A DNA stretch of 64,000 bases, from positions 25,027-89,026 of the forward strand of contig SHYD01000002.1 of assembly GCA_009692945.1 (NCBI GenBank), written 5' to 3'. Position numbers and translations under genes: made by a program. The DNA is from Dehalococcoidia bacterium (GTDB lineage Bacteria; Chloroflexota; Dehalococcoidia; SHYD01). The notes beneath the pieces are model-generated. The model saw only the letters and a program-made list of their open reading frames with translations, searched no databases and had not been told where the DNA came from. Positions 10,960-11,156 of this stretch are shown here, one piece after another. Numbering within the stretch: position 1 is the first letter of the stretch; every line of letters starts with the position of its first letter.

Positions 10960-11156
10960 ACCATGGGGACACCACCGAGCCATGAAAAGGCGTGGACGGC
11001 GACCTCCCCCTAAGATCACTCATGGCGGACGGGGCGCGCCCCTTGACCCCCTCCCCGCCGTAGGAGAAATAAAGAGATGGATGGTGAGGGTACACCCCTC
11101 ACACTCCCCGCCAACGGGAGACCCGCTGGACACCCCTGGAGGAGCTGCTGTTCCTA
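10960..11156 (+). repeat. GC-hairpin repeat, type 3 module
   Basis: GACACCACCGAGCCATGAAAAGG...GTGAGGG-TACAC-CCCTCAC...CCAACGGG-AGA-CCCGCTGG-ACACCCCT. Homologous to 30618..30785 and partly to 4716..4770. Confidence 0.75.

Follow-up and report, generated by a model that had tools for sequence, protein, structure and literature searches.

An IS66-type miniature element in a Dehalococcoidia genome and the two-hairpin cassette that it shares with other repeats of the Chloroflexota

What keeps a hairpin-bearing repeat in dozens of intergenic regions of a bacterial genome, and does it act as a peptide, as RNA or as DNA? The question is raised by a 64,000-nucleotide stretch of a Dehalococcoidia draft genome (contig SHYD01000002.1, positions 25,027 to 89,026; hereafter the window), in which a first-pass annotation made from the sequence alone had described, as the third of its repeat types, a module at 10960-11156 that ends in two hairpins. 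The stems were said to be kept between copies while the loops differ, which had suggested selection on DNA or RNA structure, not on a peptide. The source genome (G000) is a 2.5-Mb draft with 65% G+C in 99 contigs, and the assembly is 81% complete. We identify the module as the left part of a miniature inverted-repeat transposable element (MITE) of the IS66 type, and its two-hairpin core of ~55 nt as one form of a cassette that recurs in many genomes of the Chloroflexota, independent of the backbone that carries it. With slightly better than even confidence, we read the locus as an ordinary IS66-mobilised MITE carrying an unusual, structure-constrained cassette that acts as folded DNA. The intuition of structure rather than peptide was right, the evidence for it coming from other genomes.

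The transposed unit and its likely mobiliser

The interval 10939-11322 on the forward strand is one 384-bp composite MITE, with ends GTATCTATTCAG...GTGAACTCTTAC and a perfect 8-bp target duplication, GTCCGCCG, directly outside both of them (10931-10938 and 11323-11330). The type 3 module makes up its left 243 bp, and the element of type 1 to which the module is joined makes up its right 141 bp (11182-11322, a body and right terminal repeat delimited by comparison with solo type 1 copies). When copies were aligned together with their flanks, homology began at GTATCTATTCAG (10939), read through ...CACAGCAG into type 1 in about two-thirds of the copies, and ended at ...GTGAACTCTTAC (11322). On contigs from four freshwater metagenomes that hold other copies, homology stops at 10937-10939 and at 11322-11323; no contig in these metagenomes joins 10938 to 11323, and contigs there break at the repeat. 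Three further composites in G000 are bounded by perfect 8-bp duplications (ATGTATAC, AACCTCGA and GTGACAGC). A copy is indeed present at 10960-11156, but these limits were too narrow, since homology runs from 10939, the module extends to 11181 and the transposed unit to 11322.

The left terminal inverted repeat (10939-10950) follows a consensus, GTAWCTAYTCAG, with 84 matches across G000, and the reverse complement of the right end is GTAAGAGTTCAC. G000 contains a single match to PF03050, the IS66-family DDE transposase (E = 1e-44, contig C55). The element that holds it (C55:219-1626) is ~1.4 kb long, has a single open reading frame (ORF), appears intact and adjoins two tRNA genes. It carries GTAACTACTCAG at both ends and an 8-bp duplication, GGGGAAGT, on both sides. 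The end sequence of the MITEs matches that of this sole IS66-family transposase element, and duplications of 8 bp flank four composites as well as the insertion sequence itself. Because it has IS66-type ends and an 8-bp duplication, the 10939-11322 interval is a 384-bp IS66-type MITE insertion, and types 3 and 1 together are the unit that was transposed. The element is also small, non-coding and multi-copy, with 29 near-full copies that differ by indels of 1-2 nt. The C55 element is the likely mobiliser of the MITEs of types 1, 2 and 3, which would be moved in trans by its IS66-family (ISBst12-like, single-ORF) transposase. The core with its linker and tail (~55 nt) was not found in this one IS66 element of G000.

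Solo type 1 elements read GTCTATTCAG followed directly by TGTCAGGGG (e.g. window 8204-8360, minus strand), and the type 3 module is ~230 bp of extra sequence between the left end and the type 1 body. Junctions in G000 comprise 63 of the solo and 21 of the composite kind. Two of the copies that consist of type 3 only (C9:13268 and C12:14595) are flanked by direct repeats of 8-9 bp (GTCCCAAAA and CAGAACTC), their left ends differ, and neither starts at the canonical GTA terminus; the repeats reflect either a second way of moving the module or secondary duplications.

Copies of the repeat are present in the window at 10960-11156, at 30618-30785 and, as a 3' part, at 4714-4776, as the first-pass annotation had it, and their abundance is far beyond chance. 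Searches with blastn found 29 near-full copies of the 10960-type module in G000 (77-96% identity) and 13 of the 30618-type (72-83% identity), many of them at contig ends. The core alone was found 83 times by nhmmer and 105 times by a covariance model built from 67 of those 83 copies; 80 of the 83 are intergenic. The module is thus not confined to the two loci originally seen, and dozens of copies are spread over the genome. The two long window copies align at the 5' box GACACCACCGRGCCATGAAAAGG and over the two-hairpin 3' part, with a dissimilar middle, in agreement with the weak conservation noted for the central ~70 nt. Both are joined to type 1, in the same orientation at 11179/11182 and inverted at ~30790, but a constant partnership does not hold: only ~28 of the 83 cores abut type 1, and 13 of 19 full modules (those in which the standard 3' tail was recognised) continue into it.

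The core, its pairing and its mirror symmetry

Two hairpins do stand at the 3' end of the module. In the 10960 copy, hairpin 1 (11084-11102) reads GTGAGGG-TACAC-CCCTCAC and is followed by a linker, ACTCCCCG (11103-11110), by hairpin 2 (11111-11129) and by the tail ACACCCC (11130-11136). Hairpin 2 had been given the 5' arm CCAGCGGG; the copy in fact reads CCAACGGG-AGA-CCCGCTGG, an uncompensated G>A change that leaves one A.C mismatch. The consensus CCAGCGGG-AGA-CCCGCTGG is found in at least 60 of 67 G000 copies. The corresponding parts of the 30618 copy (30618-30785, plus strand, a member of the 13-copy subfamily) are hairpin 1 at 30729-30747, linker at 30748-30755, hairpin 2 at 30756-30774 and tail at 30775-30781. 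In nearest-neighbour folding, which considers Watson-Crick pairs only, the core folds better than its shuffles on both strands (z = -2.1 to -4.1; -4.1 and -3.2 for the two strands of the 30618 copy), whereas the left 150 nt of the element do not (10939-11088, z = +0.73).

The core is not tied to one carrier. The type 3 5' box or left end can be recognised beside 47 of the 83 G000 cores. About ten others lie inside a different element, with ends TGCACTGCGTCA...TGACGCAGTGCA and CTAG or CTAA on the right flank, in which the core is preceded by CCTCACCCCCT-TGA-TCCCCCTCTCC-TCGAA-GGAGAGGGGGT and an A/G-rich spacer. The MITE backbones that carry the core are of at least three kinds. Beyond G000, the covariance model detected it in 18 of 41 relatives, among them 7 of the 8 from its own family and members of several further families of the class. 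It is also present in 25 of 301 genomes sampled across Chloroflexota, some of them from families of other classes and with 8-12 copies. Exact-pattern scans recovered it from Dehalococcoidia metagenome-assembled genomes (MAGs) from Lake Baikal, groundwater and soil, and from one Chloroflexia MAG. In other genomes the core lies within elements bounded by CTAGCAGG...CCTGCTAG, directly after stop codons with no recognisable backbone, or in tandem arrays with a period of 138-140 or 217 nt. In the complete 2.76-Mb genome G003 (loci L067 and L073-L092), 409 kb yielded 164 cassette matches, most of which form tandem clusters of one orientation with periods of ~138 and 217 nt. Only 4 matches in total came from fourteen further 20-kb samples of this genome, so that one ~450-kb region shows extreme clustering of the cassette. 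No account of the cassette turned up in literature searches by keyword and sequence string. With Rfam 15 the window gave only tRNAs at gathering thresholds, and permissive scans of the module and of six relatives' loci stayed at chance level.

A unit of hairpin 1 and linker, NNGAGGGG-ACA-CCCCTCNN-ACTCCCCGCC, also occurs nearly unchanged in repeats of uncultured Hyphomicrobiales/Alphaproteobacteria MAGs (L021, L022, L027 and L115-L118), some of them from soil, and in Roseibium aggregatum (L020). There it sits in a longer element with inverted ends of the GCTTCGCGA...TCGCGAAGC type, which also holds a GGGCTGCCGCCC hairpin like that of G000 type 1 and a CTGGCGGG-TGT-CCCGCCAG hairpin resembling hairpin 2. 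As judged from these similarities, the alphaproteobacterial occurrence points to horizontal spread or deep conservation.

Whether pairing or sequence is conserved depends on the distance over which copies are compared. Within G000, 96.6% of stem cells in 67 aligned copies are paired and only 2 cells show a change on both sides, a number like that in shuffles. The stems hardly vary there, so a covariation test within this genome is uninformative. Across other genomes, 13 of 15 pairs change on both sides among 57 distinct copies. The number of double-change cells is 131, compared with 33 +/- 7 in shuffles (0 of 500 shuffles as high), and 95% of cells are paired, a share that falls to 40-63% if the partner is shifted by 1-3 columns. 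Hairpin 1 has an inner part, GGGG-ACA-CCCC, that hardly changes across genomes, and an outer 4 bp that covary (GTGA/TCAC, CTGG/CCAG, TCAG/CTGA, GCGA/TCGC, TTGG/CCAA); covariation extends to hairpin 2. Sequence is conserved in the linker, (A)ACYCCCYGC, and in the tail, GACWCCCC. The proposal that pairing rather than sequence is conserved therefore holds between genomes, in both hairpins, but not in G000, where the sequence itself is kept. Similarly, the rule of kept stems and differing loops applies to hairpin 1 (TACAC versus TAG in the two window copies) but not to hairpin 2. In G000 variation in the AGA loop of hairpin 2, in the linker ACTCCCCG and in the ACACCCC tail is about as low as in the stems.

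A peptide is rejected because indels of 1-2 nt between copies break any frame and because frames differ between subfamilies. The ATG in the module does open unlike ORFs in the different subfamilies, as had been observed for the two window copies, and the length of the hairpin 1 loop ranges from 3 to 6 nt across copies.

A further constraint involves the linker. Together with the 3' arm of hairpin 1 it reads CCCCTCA-C-ACTCCCC, a mirror repeat, and the mirror follows changes in the stem: GAGGGG goes with CTCCCC in many genomes, GGAGGG with CCTCC in G003, and GGGGGG with CCCCC in G001, G030, G028 and G035. Among 106 distinct arm/linker combinations, 486 of 636 positions match as a mirror, compared with 415 +/- 8 for permuted linkers (0 of 5000 permutations as high). 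At two informative positions a T in the arm goes with a T in the linker 32:8 and 18:2. In terms of Watson-Crick pairing a mirror repeat is meaningless; its known structural meaning is that of a third strand. The linker at 11103-11110 is thus a candidate third strand, and the GTGAGGG / CCCTCAC / ACTCCCC blocks give the purine arm, pyrimidine arm and mirror block found in triplex repeats.

A second unit of this kind lies upstream of the core in other subfamilies and genomes, where the intact motif is CCTCTCCCCCT-TGA-TCCCCCTCTCC-loop-GGAGAGGGGGA. In 21 of 23 sequences, 8-9 of 9 positions agree between its 9-nt pyrimidine block, the mirror lying 2-7 nt upstream and the complementary purine block; where the variants CTCTCC, CTTCC and CTTCTC occur, all three blocks change together. 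One intact unit lies on the window's own contig (C71), ~5.5 kb before the first base of the window. In full, the cassette consists of a pyrimidine block, a 3-nt loop, a mirror pyrimidine block, a loop, a complementary purine block, an A/G-rich spacer, hairpin 1 with its mirror linker, and hairpin 2 with a C-run tail. The window copies keep only the hairpin 1/linker unit intact. In the 10960 copy, a vestige of the upstream unit at 11037-11067 (CCCCT-TGA-CCCCCTCC...GGAGG, recognised by alignment with the intact motif) and the A/G-rich spacer together occupy 11037-11083. Upstream of these, the 5' and central type 3 part (10951-11036, including GACACCACCGAGCCATGAAAAGG) has a nucleotide diversity (pi) of ~0.10-0.12 within the 10960-type subfamily and is poorly conserved between subfamilies. 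Downstream of the tail, this subfamily has a 3' extension of its own (11137-11181, ending in ...TCACAGCAG), which the 30618-type lacks; there ACACCCC is followed directly by TTTTCATG, with the inverted type 1 element from ~30790.

The cassette is thus a string of hairpins, each of which has next to it a strand that could occupy its major groove, with T.A-T and C+.G-C triples for the C-rich strand and G.G-C and A.A-T triples for the G-rich strand. Three-way covariation of this sort, as read from the aligned sequences, is the signature of an intrastrand triple helix, and the cassette is probably able to form one.

The core also evolves more slowly than its carrier. In 21 copies of the 10960-type, pi is 0.035 in the core (hairpin 1 loop excluded) and 0.124 in the rest of the module (p = 2e-7); it is 0.014-0.027 in the stem of hairpin 1, 0.014 in the tail, and 0.18 both in the hairpin 1 loop and in the terminal repeat. 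Mutations private to a single copy are rarer in the core of these MITEs (0.25 per site versus 0.61 elsewhere, P = 2e-4), in paired and unpaired parts alike. Such low diversity requires either that individual copies are under selection or that gene conversion homogenises the ~100 cores.

Strand behaviour and the readings that compete with folded DNA

An RNA reading would make the cassette a structured RNA in transcripts, protecting or processing 3' ends, resembling a terminator or giving a small RNA that pairs with G-rich sites through its C-rich single strands (ACUCCCC, ACACCCC), with the MITEs merely distributing it. The strong covariation of the stems and the conservation of single-stranded segments suit this reading, and pyrimidine-motif triplexes can form in RNA too (PMC4666352, introduction). 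Additionally, some genomes have the core ~20 nt past a stop codon with a T-run after the tail (GGACTCCCCTTTT), and its layout bears a weak likeness to cyanobacterial Yfr1 (14.5 bits, against a gathering score of 38). Orientation, which is random with respect to genes, tells against it. The next gene upstream in G000 points the same way as the core 31 times and the other way 40 times, with intergenic types near the genome baseline, and the G003 clusters in tandem gene contexts are co-oriented in 15 and opposite in 10; convergent intergenic regions of G003 are enriched for clusters (14 of 45). Neither strand shows an excess of G.U over A.C mismatches: G.T and A.C number 17 and 19 in G000, and 10 and 16 across genomes. 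There is no conserved promoter, the TTGAC-like motif not being kept across genomes and lying 21-24 nt from an A-rich box; the T-run lies 8-10 nt past the hairpin rather than adjacent to it; no Rfam family matches; and 80-160 copies per genome would be unusual for a trans-acting RNA. The RNA half of the original proposal consequently finds no support in orientation or mismatches, and we regard an RNA role as unlikely.

Several narrower readings were also tried and rejected. A promoter was dismissed on the 21-24-nt spacing of TTGAC...TAAAGA and the lack of conservation of TTGAC in other genomes, and an intrinsic terminator on the lack of an adjacent T-run on either strand of the window copies and of any orientation bias. 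Replication-strand bias was absent from G000, where core orientation is random with respect to local GC skew (43 of 76). A link between skew and orientation in the first 330 kb of G003 failed in 24 further regions, where skew is noisy. A search for RNA runs of this organism returned none; one sequencing run labelled as RNA contains 40-kb contigs, looks DNA-contaminated and is uninformative. The sole strand-asymmetric feature found is at the third pair from the base of hairpin 2 (CAAAGGG...CCCTCTG), where an A.C mismatch, equivalent to G.U on the complementary strand, recurs in 12 of 49 distinct copies from several genomes (G003, G006, G008, G016, G021, G030 and OZ250168 loci).

Several copies bear traces of hairpin-templated strand switching. 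Loops are flipped in place into the exact reverse complement of the common loop (TACAC/GTGTA, ACTG/CAGT, TACG/CGTA, AGA/TCT); flipped or rewritten copies include C81:14988, C64:3923, C25:470, C49:32984, C74:1509 and C95:14822 (e.g. GTGAGGGGTGTACCCTCAC versus GTGAGGGTACACCCCTCAC). In two copies the first linker bases have been rewritten to complement the 5' flank, extending the palindrome by 4 bp (GACG...CGTC and GATG...CATC). Loop flips and palindrome extensions are typical products of template switching at quasi-palindromes, and such products imply that the hairpins form as single-stranded DNA in replication or repair.

Other rearrangements involve the hairpins as well. In a tandem array of G004 (L006:1181-1775), the stretch from the G-run of hairpin 1 to that of hairpin 2 is missing in some units; they carry a hybrid hairpin, TGAGGGG-CCAG-CCCCTCA, and have a period of 112 nt instead of 140, which shows recombination between the two hairpins of one cassette. 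The third window copy (4714-4881, plus strand, within the 4700-4881 region; family D9) is a 5'-truncated composite MITE cut inside the hairpin 1 loop. It starts with ...CACCCCTCAC at 4714, a breakpoint that is the exact end of the remnant of a PQQ-type dehydrogenase gene, has an internal deletion that fuses CTGTTCCTGG to the type 1 interior, and ends in GTGAATTCTCAC. Hairpin loops seem to act as breakpoints.

The same switching products feed a reading in which no selection acts at all, young palindromes being kept by hairpin-templated repair and gene conversion, with covariation and mirror symmetry as by-products of their origin. The lack of covariation within G000 accords with this, as do the clear loop flips and palindrome extensions, the fourfold larger number of potential conversion donors in the genome for the core than for its flanks, and the homogeneity of each genome, which fits concerted evolution. 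Template switching, however, keeps Watson-Crick palindromes and cannot keep a mirror repeat, an unpaired tail or the loop of hairpin 2. The architecture moreover persists with compensated differences in many families of the phylum and in Hyphomicrobiales, and old copies should show uncompensated decay, yet 95-97% of stem cells are paired. We consider this reading improbable.

A somewhat less remote reading, though still a doubtful one, is that the cassette is recognised by a protein of its own, one that would bind hairpin DNA or cut it, as in the REP-RAYT and NTS/SRM-Ssn systems, and that stems covary by co-evolution with it. The stem variant is near-uniform within each genome across backbones (GTGAGGGG in G000, CTGGAGGG in G003, TCAGGGGG in G030, GCGAGGGG in G028), the ACA loop, linker and tail are conserved in sequence as protein contacts would be, and cassette copies of G003 have a small GIY-YIG gene 150 nt away. 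Among the small GIY-YIG genes examined in relatives, however, that of G003 is the only one with cassette copies within ~1 kb, and G000, in an assembly 81% complete, has no GIY-YIG match. Among 41 genomes the carriage of small GIY-YIG genes does not track that of the cassette. The cassette lacks the SRM pattern, and the small GIY-YIG genes examined in relatives are not flanked by it either; the RAYT-like gene of G000 is flanked by a GTAG-tagged REP, GGGCGGGTTTGAAACCCGCCCCTACCCC, not by the cassette; and the genes between close cassette pairs in G000 are ordinary metabolic genes.

Assignment of the module to either known system was likewise rejected. For REP/REPIN-RAYT, the cassette has no GTAG or CGTC tag and the RAYT-like gene has a different REP. 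For Ssn/SRM, the module contains no match to HGTCWYN(0-2)YYVSBRHN(0-5)WNVSBRGN(0-2)RNCYNB, nor is there one near the small GIY-YIG genes of relatives; G000 has 16 heterogeneous matches to the pattern. The RAYT-like ORF (C37:93180-93746; L002:1447-2013, minus strand) encodes a tyrosine transposase of 188 aa, matches NF047646 at E = 1.5e-16, below the curated cut-off, and PF01797 with 31.5 bits. It has GGGCGGGTTTGAAACCCGCCCCTACCCC, a GTAG-type REP on the other strand, on both sides and one copy inside the coding sequence.

We return to folded DNA as the most likely mode of action, rather than RNA, with a role at the transcript level or a dedicated binding protein as possible alternatives. The cassette would act as folded single-stranded DNA, a hairpin or intrastrand triplex that is transient in replication or repair. 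Its fold would promote its own copying, by template switching, tandem amplification and gene conversion between ~100 copies, as well as repeated capture by MITEs, and its persistence would not be due to any encoded product. We infer base triples in the fold, action as DNA, and persistence through copying and capture.

Several points weigh against this preferred reading. The cross-genome alignment was fitted to the covariance model, and phylogeny does not enter the covariation statistics. Perhaps three to five independent changes underlie the three-way signal. When hairpin 1 is fully paired (8 bp), a single nucleotide joins the putative third strand to the stem, a tight fit sterically, and C+.G-C triples are weak at neutral pH. 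Slow evolution of the core needs an extra assumption (gene conversion, or a function for host or element), because a DDE transposase does not need the cassette. Uniform, genome-specific stems would also fit co-evolution with a genome-encoded binding protein. Finally, in vivo footprinting of TM_ECO, a triplex repeat of E. coli and the one tested family with this architecture, did not detect the triplex (PMC4666352).

Relation to known repeats and meaning of the cassette

As a mobile element, the carrier resembles MITEs of the IS66 family (ISBst12 group) and, more broadly, bacterial MITEs whose interiors are structured, such as the Correia/NEMIS elements of Neisseria, in being short and non-coding, with dozens of intergenic copies and mosaic subfamilies. 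Terminal repeats that start with GTA(A) and are identical to those of the resident IS66 element, together with the 8-bp duplication, complete the likeness to IS66-family MITEs. In contrast to these, its interior is not a deletion derivative of the insertion sequence, only the 12-bp ends being common; the interior cassette is common to MITEs with quite different ends and target duplications, and it evolves ~3.5 times more slowly than the rest of the element. REP/REPIN-RAYT and CGTC-tagged REP / NTS-SRM-Ssn repeats (PMC3733652, PMC11893778) share with the cassette abundant GC-rich intergenic hairpins with conserved stems and variable loops, genome-specific variants and an oriented, non-palindromic flank, but the cassette has no GTAG/CGTC tag, no SRM match and no RAYT or Ssn gene that it flanks.

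The closest architecture is that of the BoxC/PIT/TM_ECO repeats. These too are intergenic and multi-copy, lack strand bias, and have three consecutive blocks (pyrimidine, mirror or repeat, and complementary purine) with short loops, including one of 3 nt, in which stems are conserved and loops vary. TM_ECO folds as a DNA triplex in vitro by CD and NMR (Holder et al. 2015, PMC4666352, which also cites the PIT work of Hoyne and Maher), and it clusters in the origin-proximal replichore halves of E. coli K-12 (PMC4666352), as the cassette is clustered in G003. Membership of the TM_ECO sequence family, CCCTCNCCC-N3-6-GGGNGAGGG-N3-GGGNGAGGG, was rejected, since block sequences and lengths differ: the cassette has 12-nt blocks, CCTCTCCCCCT / TCCCCCTCTCC / GGAGAGGGGGA, whereas TM_ECO has CCCTCNCCC / GGGNGAGGG. 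Because the sequences differ, we place the cassette with BoxC/PIT/TM_ECO by architecture and not as a sequence family. Further differences are that the cassette combines two triplex-type units and a further hairpin in fixed order, that it rides on transposable elements while TM_ECO is reported without mobile-element association, and that it displays natural three-way covariation, with only the hairpin 1/linker unit kept in the window copies.

The MITE itself is routine. The interest lies in its cargo of ~55-110 nt, which evolves several times more slowly than the carrier, is common to unrelated backbones and distant phyla, and shows mirror covariation of the Hoogsteen type in addition to Watson-Crick covariation. 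The repeats also explain the breakage of the assembly into 99 contigs and the mosaics of type 1, 2 and 3 repeats that interrupt operons such as his. Between the start codon of hisB (30585) and the 30618 module, positions 30586-30617 contain ...CTCATAGATAC, an inverted MITE left end (GTATCTAT). The module has a degenerate left end of its own (ACAACCTCGCAAACATCC) and lacks the CATGACC...GGG hairpin, and this his intergenic region looks like several abutting MITE fragments. For annotation, the results are a warning that ORFs or small RNAs should not be called in these repeats.

The intrastrand triplex repeats of E. coli were recognised 25 years ago, and we know of no evidence that their fold is important in vivo. 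A family with natural three-way covariation would make the in vivo relevance of a triplex fold testable. It is a tentative proposal, clearly less probable than folded DNA in general, that the cassette is a naturally selected intramolecular triple-helix module, in DNA or RNA, made of two triplex-type hairpins and a third hairpin with a C-run tail in fixed order, conserved across Chloroflexota and present in Hyphomicrobiales repeats too. If this is true, comparative evidence that intrastrand triplexes form in living bacteria, and that they matter there, would for the first time be provided by the three-way covariation. Either a conserved cellular machine would then read the fold or the fold would drive its own amplification, and in the latter case the cassette would represent a new class of structure-propagated selfish elements picked up repeatedly by MITEs.

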